Shown: positions 1-5,772, counted from the first letter of the stretch. The stretch is 5,772 bases of DNA from a virus (IMGVR_UViG_3300029181_000054), one strand, 5' to 3'. The notes: a model not told the origin generated them from the letters alone. Translations and numbers: made by a program.

Positions 1-76
1 CTGCACCTGGGCCATGTAAGCCGATTTTATTGCCTCGAAACCACCGAGCCGGAATTTCATGAAATCCCGGGAGGTA
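1..76 (-). pseudogene. exo: 3' remnant of lambda-type exonuclease gene (exo, Red-alpha); 5' portion deleted, continues beyond window start
   Basis: Reverse complement of 1-75 reads in one frame as [25 protein letters not shown], which matches an internal to C-terminal stretch of lambda Exo as I recall it (about residue 135 onward of 226). The expected exo start is present as ATG at 78-80 overlapping the bet stop (ATGA), but it is followed by only six codons (MIPPGIS) then TGA at 57-59, and is out of frame with the remnant. An in-frame ATG at 58-60 could at most give a C-terminal fragment. Confidence 0.75.
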
Positions 77-862
77 TCATGCTGCCACCTTCTGCTCAGT
101 GGCTTTCTGTTTCAGGAATCCAAGAGCTTTCACTGCTTCGGCCTGTGTCAGTTCTGACGATGCGCGAATGTCGCGGCGAAATATCTGGGAACAGAGCGGC
201 AATAAGTCGTCATCCCATGTTTTATCCAGGGCAATCAGCAGAGTGTTAATCTCCTGCATGGTTTCATCGTTAACCGGAGTGATGTCGCGTTCCGGCTGAC
301 GTTCTGCAGTGTATGCGGTATTTTCGACAATGCGCTCGGCTTCATCCTTGTCATAGATACCAGCAAATCCGAAGGCGAGACGGGCACACTGAATCATGGC
401 TTTATGCCGTAACATCCGTTTGGGATGCGACTGCCACGGCCCCGTGATTTCTCTGCCTTCGCGGGTTTTGAATGGTTCGCGGCGGCATTCATCCATCCAT
501 TCGGTAACGCAGATCGGATGATTACGGTCCTTGCGGTAAATCCGGCATGTACAGGATTCGTTGTCCTGCTCAAAGTCCATGCCATCAAACTGCTGGTTTT
601 CATTGATGATGCGGGACCAGCCATCAACGCCCACCACCGGAACGATGCCGTTCTGCTTATCAGGGAAGGCGTAAATTTCTTTCGTCCACGGATTAAGGCC
701 GTACTGGTTGGCGACGATCAGCAATGCGATGAACTGCGCATCGCTGGCATCACCTTTAAATGCCGTCTGGCGAAGAGTGGTGATCAGTTCCTGTGGGTCG
801 ACAGAATCCATGCCGACACGTTCAGCCAGCTTCCCTGCCAGCGTTGCGAGTGCTGTACTCAT
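77..862 (-). CDS. bet: Bet (Red-beta) single-strand annealing recombinase
   Basis: 261-aa ORF whose sequence ([82 protein letters not shown]...) matches lambda Bet essentially over its full length from memory. Five-nt gap to gam stop, as in lambda. Confidence 0.97.
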
Positions 863-867
863 CCGTT

Positions 868-1164
868 TTATACCTCTGAATCAATATCAACCTGGTGGTG
901 AGCAATGGTTTCAACCATGTACCGGATGTGTTCTGCCATGCGCTCCTGAAACTCAACATCGTCATCAAACGCACGGGTAATGGCTTTTTTGCTGGCCCCG
1001 TGGCGTTGCAAATGATCGATGCATAGCGATTCAAACAGGTGCTGGGGCAGGCCTTTTTCCATGTCGTCTGCCAGTTCTGCCTCTTTCTCTTCACGGGCGA
1101 TCTGCTGGTAGTGACGCGCCCAGCTCTGAGCCTCAAGACGATCCTGAATGTAATAAGCGTTCAT
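868..1164 (-). CDS. gam: Gam, RecBCD inhibitor (98-aa GamS-length form)
   Basis: 98-aa [24 protein letters not shown]...[10 protein letters not shown] matches lambda Gam from memory. AGGAG Shine-Dalgarno (window 1170-1174 complement) 5 nt upstream of ATG 1162-1164. The in-frame upstream extension has no Met and reaches a stop after about 19 codons, so only the short form can be made. Confidence 0.95.
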
Positions 1165-1239
1165 GGCTGAACTCCTGAAAATGGCTGTGAAAATATCGCC
1201 CGCGAAATGCCAGGCTGATTAGGAAAACAGGAAAGGGGA

Positions 1240-1530
1240 TTAGTGATTGAGGCCGTTACCGCGTCCGTCGAGAAAAACTTCCACGAGCAAATCACGGGTA
1301 TAAGTGCGCTCGATGCCGCGATGCAGATAAAGCCGTCCGCGTAAATTAGCTGATGCAGTCCAGGTACCATCTTTGTGTTTGACCAGCATTCCTGGCATGA
1401 CCGCACCGCGATTAACGGTCTGCGTTCCGTAATGTTGATGAACCATAAAAACTCCTGCCCGTAAGCTGGGCTGCTGAACATATAGAGACTTCTGCGCGTA
1501 TTCAGGCGGTGGATGGCCGCCGGTTGTCAT
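1240..1530 (-). CDS. Hypothetical small protein, first ORF of the putative pL operon (N/kil position); start uncertain
   Basis: Open frame 1240-1650 on the minus strand. Candidate starts: ATG 1444-1446 with a strong AGGAG Shine-Dalgarno 5 nt upstream (68 aa, [35 protein letters not shown]...); ATG 1528-1530 with a weaker GAGG-type site (96 aa); TTG 1648-1650 or GTG 1615-1617, which would add an arginine-rich N-terminus (RGVKRTRERR). No family recognised. Confidence 0.45.
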
Positions 1531-1668
1531 AACTAAGCCGCCTCGTTGAAGCGACTGAGGTATAAAGTGTTGTGTTGATTTCAGCTGGTCACACCGACGT
1601 TCACGCGTCCGTTTCACCCCTCGCACTCCCCGAAGCCTGCTGAAATTCAAACTGCGGATCTAAGCGGT

Positions 1669-1718
1669 CATCGCAACGGTGAAACAGGTGGTTACCGTAT
1701 CGTTGTGTCGTTGCGATG
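1669..1718 (-). other. Perfect 10-bp inverted repeat (CATCGCAACG / CGTTGCGATG) with 30-nt spacer in the putative pL leader; potential RNA hairpin or protein binding site
   Basis: Window 1669-1678 CATCGCAACG and 1709-1718 CGTTGCGATG are exact reverse complements. The element begins right after the predicted pL start and ends just before the in-frame stop that opens the downstream ORF. Confidence 0.4.
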
Positions 1719-1721
1719 AAT

Positions 1722-1800
1722 TTATTTAAAACTATAGTTGTTTTATCGTCAACAACAAAAGTTGTTTTATCGGTTGTTTTAAATATAACTGGTTGTATTT
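1722..1800 (-). promoter_or_regulatory. Candidate OL operator cluster and pL promoter (leftward)
   Basis: GTTGTT motifs at 1737-1742, 1761-1766, 1773-1778 (and GGTTGTA 1791-1797), plus an inverted AACAAC at 1751-1756 forming GTTGTT-N8-AACAAC; the same half-site forms the palindrome between cI and cro. Minus-strand -35 TTGACG (window 1747-1752), 17-nt spacer, -10 TTAAAT (window 1724-1729). Confidence 0.45.
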
Positions 1801-1890
1801 AGGATGGATTTATTTTGTGACTTGCATCGCATAGCGATAACTGAAGTGAGGTGTGGTGGTTTTTTGGACGGTATGAGTTATGAGGGGGAG

Positions 1891-1919
1891 GAAAAGAAAA
1901 CCCGGCGCGGTTGCCGGGT
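1891..1919 (-). terminator. Intrinsic (rho-independent) terminator downstream of the lipoprotein gene
   Basis: On the minus strand: GC-rich stem CCCGGC / GCCGGG (window 1901-1906 and 1913-1918) with a 6-nt loop, followed by TTTTCTTTTC. Starts 8 nt after the lipoprotein stop codon (1927-1929). Confidence 0.7.
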
Positions 1920-1926
1920 ATGATTA

Positions 1927-2307
1927 TCAGTCAGCCCAACCTGATTTCGAGTTTATTTGGGTTTCTGACATTGTGTATTTCTTAATCGTGTCATCGTTAA
2001 AAAGAATAGTAAGTTCTTTTTTCGTACCGTTCGTTCCATTATGGAATAATCCATAGAATGGAATAAAAGTGGTGCCATTAACTTTTACTTTTGCAAAGGC
2101 GTACTTCCAGATCTCCTTTCCACTGTCAGTATATGAAACAGCATCAGGAGAACCAAAGTAAGATTTAACCTCATTCTTGGTTGTTTTACCTTCCCGAAGT
2201 TTAGACTGGACACTAATTTCAGTTTCATTTTTGAGTTGCTGGTTGCCTGAAGAAGCACACCCAGCCAATACAGATGCCATCATGGCAGCGATTAGGATTT
2301 TTCTCAT
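1927..2307 (-). CDS. Small secreted lipoprotein (126 aa), AT-rich moron in the rexAB position; function unknown
   Basis: N-terminus MRKILIAAMMASVLAGCASS has a positively charged n-region, a hydrophobic core and a canonical lipobox LAGC (Cys17), with Ala at +2. The mature part has a pattern (SKLREGKTTKNEVKSYFGSPDAV ... LTILFNDDTIKKY) loosely reminiscent of BamE/SmpA-OmlA-type small lipoproteins; this is my recollection, not a search result. Sampled 60-nt segments are about one third GC, against more than half in bet. Confidence 0.85.
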   Translation of the reverse strand: MRKILIAAMMASVLAGCASSGNQQLKNETEISVQSKLREGKTTKNEVKSYFGSPDAVSYTDSGKEIWKYAFAKVKVNGTTFIPFYGLFHNGTNGTKKELTILFNDDTIKKYTMSETQINSKSGWAD

Positions 2308-2536
2308 TTTATGTTTCCATTCATTATAATCAGAAACATCTTAACATAATGATTCGAAATAAAAACCGCTACGAGATAGGGGGACATTTTGCTGACAGTA
2401 GCAACAAATCTCAGCTAACAACGAGAATATTTACTGAAATATGCAAACAGATTTGGCGTTCTTATAGAGAATTTAGTGCAATATCTAATCCGAGTGGTAT
2501 AAACCTTAACCTTCGCTCCCTTAAGTCGTAGATAAA

Positions 2537-3226
2537 TTAACCATGCTTCCTGTACGTCTGCGGCATGCTTCCAATGACCTTACCGAATATGAACACCCGG
2601 TTCATCTCGTCTTTCTCGATCGGGTCCCACGGCGAGTAGCTCTTGTTATCAGAGATAACCAGCAGCTTATCCTTCATCATTTGAAGACGTTTTACATGGG
2701 CAGTGTCGTCGTACAGAAACGCATAGATGCCATCACCGTCGAAAGATTTAACAGTGATATCAACGAACAGCAGGTCACCTGGTTCGATCGTCCCTGACAT
2801 GCTGTCACCTCGCACGTTAATGATGCGGATATTTTCCGCCTTCCTGCCATCGAACATGTGACGAGCATCGTCAAACGAGTACTCAACCGAGCGTAGAACT
2901 TCTACAAACTCACGGTTGATTACACCTGGCCCGGCACTGACTTCTATATCAAGAACGTCAATTTTGAAGTATTTGGAATGGCTGACAGTTGATTGTATTG
3001 GTTGCACTGTACTGTCTGACATATTTCCAACGCCAGAAGATAACCATTCTGCGCGCACACCCAAAGCGTTCGCGATCTCCACGATTTTAGTTGTTTGGTT
3101 AGCTTTCCCTGTTTCGATTTTCTGAATAGCAGCCTGGCTAACCCCGACCAAATCCCCAAGCGCCTTTTGTGTAAGGCCTCGCGCTAATCTGGCTTCTTTA
3201 AGTCTTTCTGAGAGTGTTGTTTTCAT
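2537..3226 (-). CDS. cI: CI-type prophage repressor: N-terminal XRE/Cro-CI helix-turn-helix and C-terminal S24 (LexA-like) autopeptidase domain
   Basis: 229 aa. N-terminal LTQKALGDLVGVSQAAIQKIETGK is a typical HTH. C-terminal RGDSMSGTIEPGDLLFVD (catalytic Ser) and VKRL (catalytic Lys) are S24 motifs, with a candidate Ala-Gly cleavage site in VSAGPG. Divergent from a cro-like gene across a 104-bp operator region. Not lambda cI. Confidence 0.93.
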   Translation of the reverse strand: MKTTLSERLKEARLARGLTQKALGDLVGVSQAAIQKIETGKANQTTKIVEIANALGVRAEWLSSGVGNMSDSTVQPIQSTVSHSKYFKIDVLDIEVSAGPGVINREFVEVLRSVEYSFDDARHMFDGRKAENIRIINVRGDSMSGTIEPGDLLFVDITVKSFDGDGIYAFLYDDTAHVKRLQMMKDKLLVISDNKSYSPWDPIEKDEMNRVFIFGKVIGSMPQTYRKHG

Positions 3227-3330
3227 AGATCAAATGTACAACCAAGGTTTTATTTCATCAAACGAAAATGGTTGTTGACTAAAAACAACCATAGTTTTAA
3301 TCTTGATTCGGATTAACCACGGAGGTTGTT
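3227..3330. promoter_or_regulatory. OR region: divergent pRM / pR promoters with palindromic operator(s)
   Basis: Perfect 25-bp palindrome ATGGTTGTT-gactaaa-AACAACCAT at 3268-3292 overlapping a plus-strand -35 TTGACT (3275-3280), with -10 TAATCT (3298-3303) and GGAGG Shine-Dalgarno at 3321-3325 before cro ATG 3331. A second, weaker site around 3236-3253 (ACAACC, palindrome AACCAAGGTT 3240-3249). Candidate minus-strand pRM: -35 TTGATG (window 3256-3261), -10 TACATT (window 3233-3238), which places the start at about the cI ATG (leaderless, as for lambda pRM). Confidence 0.55.
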
Positions 3331-3561
3331 ATGAACCCAGCAATCAAAACAGCGATCAATATCGTTGGTTCACAAAAGAAACTAGGCGATGCCTGCGAAG
3401 TTTCACAGCAGGCCGTCTATAAGTGGCTTCACAACAAAGCAAAGGTATCCCCTGAACATGTCGGCAGCATTGTTACGGCTACTGGTGGAGTTGTGAAGGC
3501 ATACCAGATTCGCCCGGATCTTCCGAAGTTGTTTCCACACACCGAAAAGAACGCAGCTTAA
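3331..3561 (+). CDS. cro: Cro-like HTH regulator of the YdaS family
   Basis: 76 aa, first gene rightward of the operator region, strong GGAGG Shine-Dalgarno. AIKTAINIVGSQKKLGDACEVSQQAVYKWL ... IRPDLPKLFP resembles my recollection of E. coli Rac YdaS (AIELAGGSQSALARLLGVSRQAVHQW ... RPDLW). Confidence 0.85.
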   Translation: MNPAIKTAINIVGSQKKLGDACEVSQQAVYKWLHNKAKVSPEHVGSIVTATGGVVKAYQIRPDLPKLFPHTEKNAA

Positions 3562-3573
3562 ATTTCCATTTCA

Positions 3574-3586
3574 CGCTCTTTAACAA
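3574..3586 (+). promoter_or_regulatory. boxA antitermination element (nutR-like position, immediately downstream of cro)
   Basis: CGCTCTTTAACAA at 3574-3586 matches the consensus boxA (rrn-type GCTCTTTAACAA; lambda nut boxA CGCTCTTA) and sits 13 nt after the cro stop, where nutR lies in lambda. No boxB-like hairpin is evident downstream. Confidence 0.55.
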
Positions 3587-3630
3587 TAAGCAATCAACTT
3601 AACAGTCAATTCAAACTAAAGGAGTCAATT

Positions 3631-4170
3631 ATGCAACCACTTACATACCAACAGACTAGCGGATTTATTCCGACTGCGGTGATAAATCGTTCTCAAACAA
3701 AACAAGCTCCAGGCCACGAAAAAATCCGTGATGCCGTCCGCGCCTGGTCGGCTGTAGATAATCAGGATGTCGTTGCCGCACTCATTGTGAATGAGTATCG
3801 GGAGCAGGGCGACGGCACCATCGATTTCCCTGATGATGTCAGCCGTGCACGCCAGAAGCTGTTCCGCTTCCTCGATAACAAATTCGATTCTGAAAAATAC
3901 CGAAATAACGTGCGTGAACTGACCCCGGCAATTCTGGCGGTACTACCGCTGGAATATCGCGGTTACCTGGTTGAGCAGGATAGCTTCATGACTCGGTTGG
4001 CTGAAATGGAAAAGGAACTCAGTGAGGCAAAACAGGCTGTCATTCTCAACGCACCACGCCACCAGAAACTGAAGGAAATGAGTGAAGGTATTGTGTCGAT
4101 GTTTCGTGTGGACCCGGATCTGGCTGGTCCATTAATGGCGATGGTGACCACCATGCTGGGGGCAATATGA
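3631..4170 (+). CDS. YdaT-family protein (CII-position regulator of YdaS/YdaT-type immunity regions)
   Basis: 179 aa with an AAGGAG Shine-Dalgarno. VAALIVNEYREQGDG and LTPAILAVLPLEYRGYL parallel VANAITEEYLRQGGG and LIPAILAILPRELR of E. coli Rac YdaT as I recall it. Sits between the cro-like gene and O, where cII lies in lambda. Its stop overlaps an upstream ATG in the O frame (ATGA at 4167-4170). Confidence 0.8.
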   Translation: MQPLTYQQTSGFIPTAVINRSQTKQAPGHEKIRDAVRAWSAVDNQDVVAALIVNEYREQGDGTIDFPDDVSRARQKLFRFLDNKFDSEKYRNNVRELTPAILAVLPLEYRGYLVEQDSFMTRLAEMEKELSEAKQAVILNAPRHQKLKEMSEGIVSMFRVDPDLAGPLMAMVTTMLGAI

Positions 4171-4256
4171 CAGGTTCAGAAATGGCGAAAGTCGGTCTGC
4201 GGGAACAGAACCGACTTTCAGGTGCAAATCGTAACACACTCATTGCGGGAGGAATT

Positions 4257-5186
4257 ATGGCAAACACTGCTGAGATATTCAATTTTCCAGTGCCGGATGC
4301 GGCACAAAAGGAGCCGCGCGTGGCAGATCTCGATGATGGTTATACGCGCATTGCAAATGAGTTGCTGGAAGCTGTGATGCTGGCCGGATTAACACAGCAC
4401 CAGCTTCTGGTCTTCCTGGCTGTCATGCGCAAAACATATGGCTTTAATAAAAAACTGGATTGGGTGAGCAACGAGCAACTTTCCGAGTTGACCGGGATAT
4501 TGCCGCACAAGTGTTCTGCTGCAAAAAGTGTTCTGGTAAAGCGTGGGATTTTTATTCAGAGCGGGCGGAATATCGGCATTAATAATGTGGTCAGTGAATG
4601 GTCAACATTACCCGAATCAGGTAAGAAAAATAAAGTTTACCTGAAAGAGGTAAATTTACCTGAATCAGGTAAGAAAAGTTTACCCAAATCAGGTAAAGGC
4701 ACTTACCCGAATCAGGTAAACACAAAAGACAAACTAACAAAAGACAATATAAAACCTTTTTCGTCCGAGAATTCTGGCGAATCCTCTGACCAACCAGAAA
4801 ACGATCTTCCTGTGGAGAAACCAGATGCTGCAATTCAGAGCGGCAGCAGGTGGGGGACAGCAGAAGACCTGACCGCCGCAGAGTGGATGTTTGACATGGT
4901 GAAGACCATCGCGCCATCAGCCAGAAAACCGAATTTTGCAGGGTGGGCTAACGATATCCGCCTGATGCGTGAACGTGACGGACGTAACCACCGCGACATG
5001 TGCGTGCTGTTCCGCTGGGCATGCCAGGACAACTTCTGGTCCGGTAACGTGCTGAGTCCGGCCAAACTCCGCGACAAGTGGACCCAGCTCGAAATCAACC
5101 GAAACAAGCAACAGGCTGGCGTGACAGCCGGCAAACCAAAACTCGACCTGACGAACACTGACTGGATTTACGGGGTGGATTTATGA
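4257..5186 (+). CDS. O: Replication initiator O (origin-binding protein), chimeric: non-lambda N-terminal region, lambda-like C-terminal region
   Basis: Start chosen at ATG 4257-4259 (GGGAGG Shine-Dalgarno 4245-4250) because MANTAEIFNF...VADLDDGYTRIANELLEA aligns with the lambda O N-terminus MTNTAKILNF...VADLDDGYARL. The open frame extends upstream to ATG 4167, an alternative start 30 codons longer. The C-terminal part (SGSRWGTAEDLTAAEWMFDMVKTIAPSARKPNFAGWANDIRLMRERDGRNHRDMCVLFRWACQDNFWSGNVLSPAKLRDKWTQLEINRNKQQAGVTAGKPKLDLTNTDWIYGVDL) is near-identical to lambda O from memory. The stop overlaps the P start (ATGA). Confidence 0.92.
   Translation: MANTAEIFNFPVPDAAQKEPRVADLDDGYTRIANELLEAVMLAGLTQHQLLVFLAVMRKTYGFNKKLDWVSNEQLSELTGILPHKCSAAKSVLVKRGIFIQSGRNIGINNVVSEWSTLPESGKKNKVYLKEVNLPESGKKSLPKSGKGTYPNQVNTKDKLTKDNIKPFSSENSGESSDQPENDLPVEKPDAAIQSGSRWGTAEDLTAAEWMFDMVKTIAPSARKPNFAGWANDIRLMRERDGRNHRDMCVLFRWACQDNFWSGNVLSPAKLRDKWTQLEINRNKQQAGVTAGKPKLDLTNTDWIYGVDL
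4608..4720 (+). repeat. ori iterons inside the O gene: five copies (one degenerate) of a 16-bp dyad-symmetric core TACC(C/T)(G/A)AATCAGGTAA
   Basis: Cores at 4609-4624 (TACCCGAATCAGGTAA), 4638-4653 (TACCTGAAAGAGGTAA, two mismatches), 4657-4672 (TACCTGAATCAGGTAA, a perfect palindrome), 4681-4696 (TACCCAAATCAGGTAA) and 4704-4719 (TACCCGAATCAGGTAA), at 19-29 bp spacing. They translate as the repetitive LPESGKK linker of O. Confidence 0.85.
4721..4765. other. AT-rich (A-rich) region flanking the iterons; putative DNA-unwinding part of the phage origin
   Basis: CACAAAAGACAAACTAACAAAAGACAATATAAAACCTTTTT lies directly right of the last iteron. Lambda ori has the same layout of iterons followed by an AT-rich segment within O. 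Confidence 0.6.
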
Positions 5187-5772
5187 AAAACATCGCCGCA
5201 CAGATGGTTAACTTTGACCGTGAGCAGATGCGCCGGATCGCCAACAATATGCCGGAACAGTACGACGAAAAGCCGCAGGTACAGCAGGTAGCGCAGATCA
5301 TCAACGGTGTGTTCAGCCAGTTACTGGCAACTTTCCCGGCGAGCCTGGCTAACCGTGACCAGAATGAACTGAACGAAATCCGCCGCCAGTGGGTTCTGGC
5401 TTTCCGGGAAAACGGGATCACCACAATGGAACAGGTTAACGCTGGAATGCGCGTAGCCCGTCGGCAGAATCGACCATTCCTGCCATCACCCGGGCAGTTT
5501 GTCGCCTGGTGCCGGGAAGAAGCATCTGTTAACGCCGGGCTGCCAAACGTCAGCGAGCTGGTTGATATGGTTTACGAGTATTGCCGGAAGCGTGGCCTGT
5601 ATCCGGATGCAGAGTCTTATCCGTGGAAATCGAACGCGCATTACTGGTTGGTTACCAACTTGTACCAGAACATGCGGGCCAATGCGCTGGCTGACGCGGA
5701 ATTACGGCGCAAGGCTGCCGATGAACTGACCTGTATGACAGCGCGAATTAACCGTGGTGAGACGATACCTGA
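5183..5772 (+). CDS. P: Replication protein P (DnaB helicase loader), 5' partial; continues beyond window end
   Basis: ATG 5183-5185 overlaps the O stop. Translation MKNIAAQMVNFDREQMRRIANNMPEQYDEKPQVQQVAQIINGVFSQLLATFPASLANRDQNE... matches lambda P from memory. No stop codon before the window ends; the six-frame track omits it for that reason. Confidence 0.95.
   Translation, partial: MKNIAAQMVNFDREQMRRIANNMPEQYDEKPQVQQVAQIINGVFSQLLATFPASLANRDQNELNEIRRQWVLAFRENGITTMEQVNAGMRVARRQNRPFLPSPGQFVAWCREEASVNAGLPNVSELVDMVYEYCRKRGLYPDAESYPWKSNAHYWLVTNLYQNMRANALADAELRRKAADELTCMTARINRGETIP

Follow-up and report, generated by a model that had tools for sequence, protein, structure and literature searches.

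The exo gene in the analysed DNA is a pseudogene, 5'-deleted and frameshifted, as its reading frames and its alignments with intact exo confirm. The window, by which we mean the whole stretch of 5,772 nucleotides analysed here (viral sequence IMGVR_UViG_3300029181_000054), is probably the early region (immunity, recombination, and replication) of a lambdoid prophage of the argU/DLP12 family. A single 397-bp deletion flanked by the repeat TACC would have removed the first part of exo, and the exo-side end of this deletion, at exo nucleotide T402, would not be a random position. We give these statements, taken jointly, a probability of about 80%.

Gene content and prophage family

The following genes and gene parts were assigned in the window:

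1..76, minus strand: 3' remnant of exo, exo nt 477 down to 402 (codons T135-Q160), running past the left window edge
77..862, minus strand: bet, intact, 261 aa (Pfam RecT, E = 2.7e-33)
868..1164, minus strand: gam, intact, 98 aa (Pfam Gam positions 1-98 of 98, E = 3.4e-65)
1240..1446, minus strand: kilR-like cell-division inhibitor gene, 68 aa (positions transferred from the annotation of LR-62-2; Pfam KilR assigned to orthologues)
1927-2307, minus strand: lipoprotein gene, 126 aa, BamE-like
2537..3226, minus strand: CI-type repressor with HTH and S24 peptidase (domain search)
3331-3561, plus strand: Cro/YdaS-like gene
3631-4170, plus strand: YdaT-like gene
4167..5186, plus strand: replication gene O (domain search), in which the replication origin presumably lies, as we would expect from lambda
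5183 to window end, plus strand: gene P

When the whole window was compared with complete E. coli genomes, at least 36 matches were obtained with identities of 98.2-99.5% and a coverage of 100%. Each of the at least 36 genome matches listed was made of two pieces, spanning 397 extra subject bases. The best match was E. coli LR-62-2, with 99.5% identity apart from the 397-bp gap, and in this genome exo is intact. The LR-62-2 prophage is located at tRNA-Arg (argU), with intD/fimZ on one flank and a ren-like gene, emrE, ybcK, ybcL, ybcM, ybcN, ninE, ybcO, and rusA on the other. This locus is the site of the cryptic prophage DLP12 in K-12, and the LR-62-2 element keeps its terminase, portal, capsid, and tail genes. 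Membership in the argU/DLP12 family was judged by colinear near-identity to an argU prophage extending from intD to emrE/ybcK-rusA, and such near-identity was found for the window. We infer that the window's own prophage would be integrated at argU; near relatives of this early region were also found at icd and at other sites.

Bet and Gam were full length and lambda-like, just as the sequence-only reading had described them; their genes precede exo in one leftward operon and were not touched by the deletion. The window Bet was identical to lambda Bet at 260/261 residues and gave a full-length match to the RecT/Bet annealase family (PF03837) with 115.6 bits, compared with a cutoff of 24. The window Gam was identical at 96/98 residues to the short form of lambda Gam, and its match to PF06064 covered profile positions 1-98 of 98 with 216.8 bits, i.e., the full length of the family. 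The assembly collection lists 72,617 blocks with this exact Bet sequence, which is among its commonest, and in ten listed occurrences it was followed every time (10/10) by an Exo of 225 or 226 aa.

The segment between the repressor gene and kilR (window 1650-2540) carried different cargo in each relative (L012-L021, L003-L010). BstA_C, HipA_2 with DUF3037, SIR2_2, DUF6414, an M78 peptidase with DUF4411, and an ASCH protein were found there in other loci, and the segment looks like a variable slot for moron or defence genes. L021 was the closest among the contigs with an identical O protein and had the same gene content, including the lipoprotein gene, whose product differed from the window lipoprotein in two residues. 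An exact-protein look-up found no record of the window's lipoprotein allele.

Structure of the exo deletion

The features around the break, together with one position in gene P that is needed for the comparison with K-12, are as follows:

49..70, unstranded: 22-nt quasi-palindrome CCGGGATTTCATGAAATTCCGG, exo nt 408-429 (inverted-repeat search)
57..80, minus strand: seven-codon ORF MIPPGIS with the residual exo start, TGA stop at 57-59
58..60, minus strand: ATG of Exo Met140, overlapping the stop of the seven-codon ORF (TCATGA, window 57-62)
73..76, unstranded: deletion junction, one kept copy of TACC (GGTA on the plus strand); ancestral copies at exo nt 5-8 and 402-405
5573..5574, unstranded: TA in gene P, the other end of the K-12 DLP12 deletion

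On the minus strand, the bet stop (77-79) overlaps the exo ATG (78-80) as ATGA (window 77-80). The exo start joins directly to exo nt 402 onward, which fills window 76 down to 1, and the reverse complement of window 1-80 begins ATGATACCTCCCGGGATTTCATGAAATTCC. The frame opened by the exo ATG reads MIPPGIS and then stops, giving seven sense codons including Met and six after Met; the statement that the start frame stops after six codons agrees with this count. The frame two bases on corresponds to T135-Q160 of lambda Exo, with 26/26 residues identical. The remnant is out of frame because 397 is not a multiple of three. Frames and alignments together bear out the first description of this gene, as an exo that lost its 5' part and whose start is joined to an internal part of Exo in another frame.

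All alignments (with lambda, with phage Turner and two Logan contigs, and by blastn with 21 loci) agreed that window 1-76 equals exo nt 477-402, and from window 73 onward the sequence was exo start plus bet in all comparators. The two blastn segments overlapped by 4 bases in every comparator and left 397 bp of the subject unmatched; a pairwise alignment of the junction with lambda exo, which the earlier reading had proposed as a check, showed the same 397-bp loss. The lost DNA extends from the last base of codon 3 through codon 135. An estimate from the sequence alone, of about 400 bp and codons 2-134, was therefore right as to the loss and only approximate as to its limits. The remnant was identical (76/76) to the intact exo of Turner, L020, L015, L004, and L006, and also to K-12 exoD. 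In the comparison with the lambda exonuclease/YqaJ family (PF09588), the remnant showed homology to the family and lacked the complete nuclease core.

Phage Turner and at least 348 complete E. coli genomes carry the ATGATACC allele of the exo start. Compared with this allele, the deletion has TACC (4 bp) at both ends, and one copy was kept. Compared with the lambda ATGACACC allele, the endpoints share ACC only. The short ACC noticed at both endpoints in the sequence-only reading thus holds for the lambda allele and is one base too short for the ATGATACC allele. A direct repeat at both ancestral ends, with a single copy left, is the pattern of a microhomology-flanked (illegitimate) deletion, and it is the pattern found here. 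By our own arithmetic, a random junction would be expected to carry a microhomology of at least 4 bp about 1.5% of the time.

Recurrence of the exo-side end at T402

The exo-side end at T402 was common to six junction types, the window and five others with different partners. The sequence-only reading had noticed neither this agreement with K-12 exoD and four further deletions nor the argU/DLP12 family of the prophage. The partners joined to T402 were the exo start (window), P, ren, ybcO, a tail gene, and bet codon 195. The junctions were located at L023 2440-2620 (K-12), L051 ~3026, L024 ~2156, L053 ~2503, L054 ~3347, and window 73-76.

K-12 strains matched the intact exo query at nt 402-681 only, and the K-12 annotation shows there an N-terminally truncated exonuclease adjoining a truncated P gene, which is the known exoD/peaD junction of DLP12. 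The K-12-type junction with P reads CTCG-TA-CCTCCCGGG, with TA as microhomology, and was present in 305/5,426 complete genomes. The K-12 junction sequence is ...CAATACTCGTACCTCCCGGG..., and the intact partner on the P side is ...CTCGTAAACC...; the K-12 deletion corresponds to window 77-5574 plus the 397 bp missing here. The ren-type junction (antisense) reads ACCG-TT-ACCTCC and was found in three complete genomes at the DLP12 locus. The ybcO-type junction (antisense) reads GGCA-TT-ACCTCC and came from a Logan contig. The tail-gene-type junction, ACAG-TA-CCTCC, belongs to a different prophage with a different integrase. The bet-codon-195-type junction, CCGG-TTA-CCTCC, forms an in-frame Bet::Exo' fusion at the DLP12 locus, and it was found in none of the complete E. 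coli genomes.

The crossover ambiguity ranges of all six junctions include the bonds 401/402 to 402/403, and the junction microhomology was 1-4 nt across the six types. In all six, the exo 3' side was retained and DNA was lost toward bet, the origin, and beyond; the loss varied from 0.4 kb up to a span that crosses both the early and the late region and reaches the tail genes. From their differing partners, we infer that the six junctions represent independent events, several of them in the same DLP12 locus. Queries built around the site brought up three of the six (K-12 type, tail type, and window), which is a bias of detection.

The DLP12 locus of L054 showed two deletions, one from ybcO (antisense) to mid bet (2990-3010) and one from bet codon 195 to exo T402 (3340-3350). 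These leave an internal bet fragment in frame with the Exo C-terminus, as a 208-aa ORF that is annotated as Bet.

The exact lambda exo 21-mer appeared in GTDB representatives of unrelated organisms (L029-L049), including Shewanella, Bradyrhizobium, Streptomyces, Paenibacillus, Vibrio, and MAGs. Several of these contigs were ~48.4-48.5 kb in length with low coverage, and they look like contamination by phage lambda.

In a less biased survey, the protein collection was searched with Exo residues 100-226, and the start of the Exo match was mapped for each protein. The mapping left out partial proteins at contig ends, readings of exo in a shifted frame, IS ends, and peptides derived from adapters. 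The survey left about 12 genuine fusions, starting near residues 21, 73, 107, 125 (two), 135 (three), 154-156 (three), and 183 (two). Three of the ~12 fusions begin at T135, compared with an expected number of triples of ~C(12,3)/226^2 = 0.004 (our own arithmetic). As a signal of a hotspot, this clustering at T135 is suggestive, coming from a survey that is short of a census.

Several candidates did not count as fusions. P0002, P0011, P0062, P0149, and P0163 were rejected, as they look adapter-derived (DVYKRQ, MCSSDL); we take peptides like these to be translated sequencing-adapter sequence, which creates artefact junctions. P0010, P0015, P0018, P0020, P0021, P0040, and P0164 were rejected as frameshift readings of exo. 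A possible second cluster of fusions lies at Exo residues 154-156 (nt ~459-466; P0008, P0009, and P0012) and includes a Gam::Exo fusion. Its endpoints spread over ~8 nt, and 2/3 come from single short contigs (582 and 4,272 bp).

Predicted hairpin and proposed mechanism

Only three short-range inverted repeats were found in exo, and two of them involve sequence at the break. On the sense strand, a hairpin is predicted from TGAAATGCCCG, the loop TTTACCTCC, and CGGGATTTCA, in which the 5' arm is written TGAAAT(G)CCCG. Its folding energy was −6.5 kcal/mol (z = −4.1, with 0/200 shuffles as stable), and it was the minimum-energy fold on both strands in a 46-nt context. The stem has ~10 bp with one bulge and the loop has 9 nt. 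T402 is the third base of the loop and therefore lies in its 5' part. Both exo alleles in which the breakpoint occurs preserve the hairpin arms; in the window, the 3' arm is found at 60-69 and the 5' arm is deleted. A hairpin-associated deletion hotspot has recurrent breakpoints at one position in or near a stable secondary structure, and this combination was observed here, with six junctions and the predicted hairpin.

The quasi-palindrome at 49..70 was also considered as the cause of a hotspot and was rejected. Folds of 71-81 nt were not significant (z −0.8 to −2.5), and the quasi-palindrome is weakened in the lambda-type allele, where the breakpoint is still present. RusA (which cuts 5' of CC), a Chi-like GCTCGGTGG, the SmaI site CCCGGG, and a serine-recombinase crossover were rejected as well on sequence grounds, since none of them fits all six junctions or the retained side.

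A structure-associated event at the hairpin loop would be the most likely mechanism for the exo-side end. In the proposed sequence of steps, the hairpin would form in the exo sense strand, and either breakage would occur at the 5' side of the loop or a fork would stall and the nascent 3' end would re-anneal in the exposed loop (slippage/template switching). After the break or the stalling, a microhomology of 1-4 nt would serve to join the ends. If the sense strand were cut, everything from the loop onward would stay on the int side, and this is the part that all six junctions retain. Given the orientation of the genes, the exo sense strand is the lagging-strand template for leftward forks from the phage origin. 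Slippage or template switching may account better for the two short deletions (397 bp and ~600 bp) than for the long ones. In the window, a single deletion between the TACC repeats (exo nt 5-8 and 402-405) would have taken out codons 3-135 and shifted the frame.

We hold it at even odds that T402 of lambda-family exo is a true hotspot for one-sided deletions that act through this hairpin, with the int side kept and the bet/origin/late side lost to a variable extent. Such a hotspot would explain the K-12 exoD/peaD structure and at least five other lesions. A single hairpin loop in exo would then repeatedly seed deletions toward the immunity and replication genes, and the crypticity of lambdoid prophages would depend in part on local DNA structure rather than on random decay. 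DLP12 as it is found in K-12 would be one product of this process, and the site would be a recurrent start of prophage decay or domestication. In the open-access literature, we found no description of a recurrent exo breakpoint and no link of DLP12 to microhomology-mediated deletion.

The proposed event resembles the deletions at hairpins and palindromes in E. coli (SbcCD cleavage, replication slippage) in the break at the 5' side of the predicted loop, the retained 3' side, and the 1-4 nt of microhomology. It differs in scale, as the published in vivo substrates of SbcCD are palindromes of hundreds of bp, compared with a stem of ~10 bp here.

Distribution and age of the junction

A 55-base query across the junction gave no match with at least 80% coverage in 5,426 complete E. 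coli genomes. The junction was also absent from 50,697 phage records, in which the two matches with at least 80% coverage were two-piece alignments to intact exo. The exact junction pattern was not found in GTDB (one genome per species), in IMG/VR, or in the JGI metagenome contigs, nor was the junction present in any related locus retrieved. Contigs that encode the identical O protein had a full-length exo wherever the contig extends that far.

The junction is probably private to this sequence, and the loss-of-function lesion is probably recent. A private junction, a remnant identical to the intact alleles, and untouched neighbours fit a recent event. The same view had been taken from the sequence alone, and it gains from the private junction and from the 76 visible remnant bases, which are those of the intact alleles; related prophages were checked for the same deletion, as had been advised there, and none of those compared carries it.

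Breaks within or beside exo are very frequent in draft assemblies, and L017 (Logan ERR7450946_273, position 1-20) is an example. Records named 'exonuclease, partial' run to hundreds and are of every length; they presumably come from several resident prophages that share exo.

Functional consequence

Mutagenesis of lambda Exo has shown that Trp24, Arg28, Arg45, Leu78, Glu85, Asp119, and Lys131 are needed for activity; Glu85, Asp119, and Lys131 are catalytic, and Trp24 and Arg28 belong to the 5'-phosphate pocket (PMC7496540). All seven residues fall within the deleted codons 3-135, and therefore no active exonuclease would be expected from this exo. The Pfam YqaJ domain corresponds to residues 24-167 of intact Exo.

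In Red recombination, Exo is the 5'-3' exonuclease that resects double-strand ends for Bet, Bet anneals single strands, and Gam inhibits RecBCD. On induction, the prophage would keep Bet annealing and the inhibition of RecBCD by Gam and would lose Exo-dependent double-strand-end recombination. As the Red genes are repressed in the lysogen, the phenotypic effect would be limited to induction. For annotation, exo should be called a pseudogene here, and Bet and Gam, not Exo activity, should be expected after induction.

Reinitiation at Met140 could produce an 87-aa C-terminal Exo fragment, which would lack every listed catalytic residue. In the Met140 frame, no other start codon was found upstream.

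Alternative explanations

The coincidence of the six junctions at T402 might reflect a boundary of homology. A K-12-type exoD would then have been the donor or template, its homology would have ended at nt 402, and microhomology joining would have followed (homology-facilitated illegitimate recombination). The K-12-type junction is common enough for this (305/5,426 genomes) and occurs in the same locus family as the window, and the visible remnant is identical to K-12 exoD. However, the 76-nt remnant is without diagnostic SNPs, hence its identity gives no positive support. A homologous exchange with both flanks available would repair exo instead of removing 397 bp from it, the tail-gene junction belongs to another prophage with another integrase, and the ren, ybcO, and tail junctions are poorly explained. 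The T-T (exo T401-T402) at the ren, ybcO, and bet junctions also speaks against such a boundary, although weakly, as the partner could equally supply the T. We consider this explanation unlikely. The six junctions might instead coincide by chance, with the deletion in the window an unremarkable random microhomology event. Truncated exo genes with other endpoints (residues ~21, 73, 107, 125, 154-156, and 183) are in line with chance, as is the origin of three of the six junctions in site-directed queries. But a single codon accounts for 3 of the ~12 junctions of the untargeted survey (expected triples ~0.004), and at the nucleotide level the six junctions agree within one or two bonds, which leaves chance very improbable. 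Formation of the window junction from a K-12-type DLP12 by ordinary homologous recombination was rejected as there is no homology on the bet side.

The other two alternatives concern the window itself. A collapsed or chimeric contig could have produced the junction from a true exo that is intact, and some observations are compatible with such an artefact of assembly or sequencing: the junction is in no other record, exo often breaks contigs in draft assemblies and is shared by several prophages, 'partial' exonuclease proteins number in the hundreds, and the Logan contig L017 ends 20 bases past the bet stop. Graph assemblers, for which the reads must hold junction-spanning k-mers, do not, however, typically produce so clean a loss of 397 bp at a 4-bp repeat, and finished genomes including K-12 have natural junctions at the same nucleotide, so an artefact is quite unlikely. 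The truncation might also be functional, with a selected role for the 87-aa fragment that reinitiation at Met140 would give. The stop-start overlap (TCATGA, window 57-62) in a chain of ATGA overlaps through bet, the mini-ORF, and Met140 would suit this role, and K-12 and four other lineages retain exactly the same exo 3' portion. Yet the fragment splits the YqaJ nuclease fold (residues 24-167) and is without all listed catalytic and channel residues except Arg137 (PMC7496540). Moreover, bet does not precede the fragment in K-12, and selection would not pin a breakpoint to the nucleotide. A selected role is hardly credible, and a structure-associated deletion at the hairpin loop is the reading we prefer for the exo-side end.

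Relation to known systems

The exoD (ybcC)/peaD structure of K-12 DLP12 shares with the window the prophage family, the locus type (argU), the exo allele, and the start of the remnant at T402. It differs in the extent of the loss: in K-12, ~5.9 kb are gone, from exo across bet, gam, the immunity region, and O to a point within P (TA as microhomology), whereas the window lost 397 bp within exo only and kept bet to P. The Red genes of lambda (exo-bet-gam, pL operon) share with the window the gene order, the bet-exo ATGA coupling, and near-identical proteins, but Exo in the window is without codons 3-135 and is frameshifted. The immunity regions also differ, with kil/cIII/N in lambda and a YdaS/YdaT-type cro/cII region plus kilR in the window.

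An annealase without exonuclease is sufficient for oligonucleotide recombination and is poor for double-stranded DNA ends. Bet-only and Bet-plus-Gam recombineering is said to have been engineered in the work of Ellis et al. 2001 (Court laboratory). Such set-ups would have the same predicted functional state as the prophage studied here, but the window carries a spontaneous lesion in a natural prophage. For K-12, an exo without its N-terminal part belongs to the textbook annotation of DLP12, the decay of recombination genes in prophages is common, and many truncated forms of exo exist in the protein collection. The lesion in the window is a private new allele of this known kind of exo decay, and it is ordinary prophage decay save for its breakpoint.

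In another locus (L025 1503-3279, GCA_045609965.1), gam is cut to 65 aa, and exo is split by frameshifts into ORFs of 139 aa and 92 aa. These frameshifts represent either further decay or homopolymer assembly errors.
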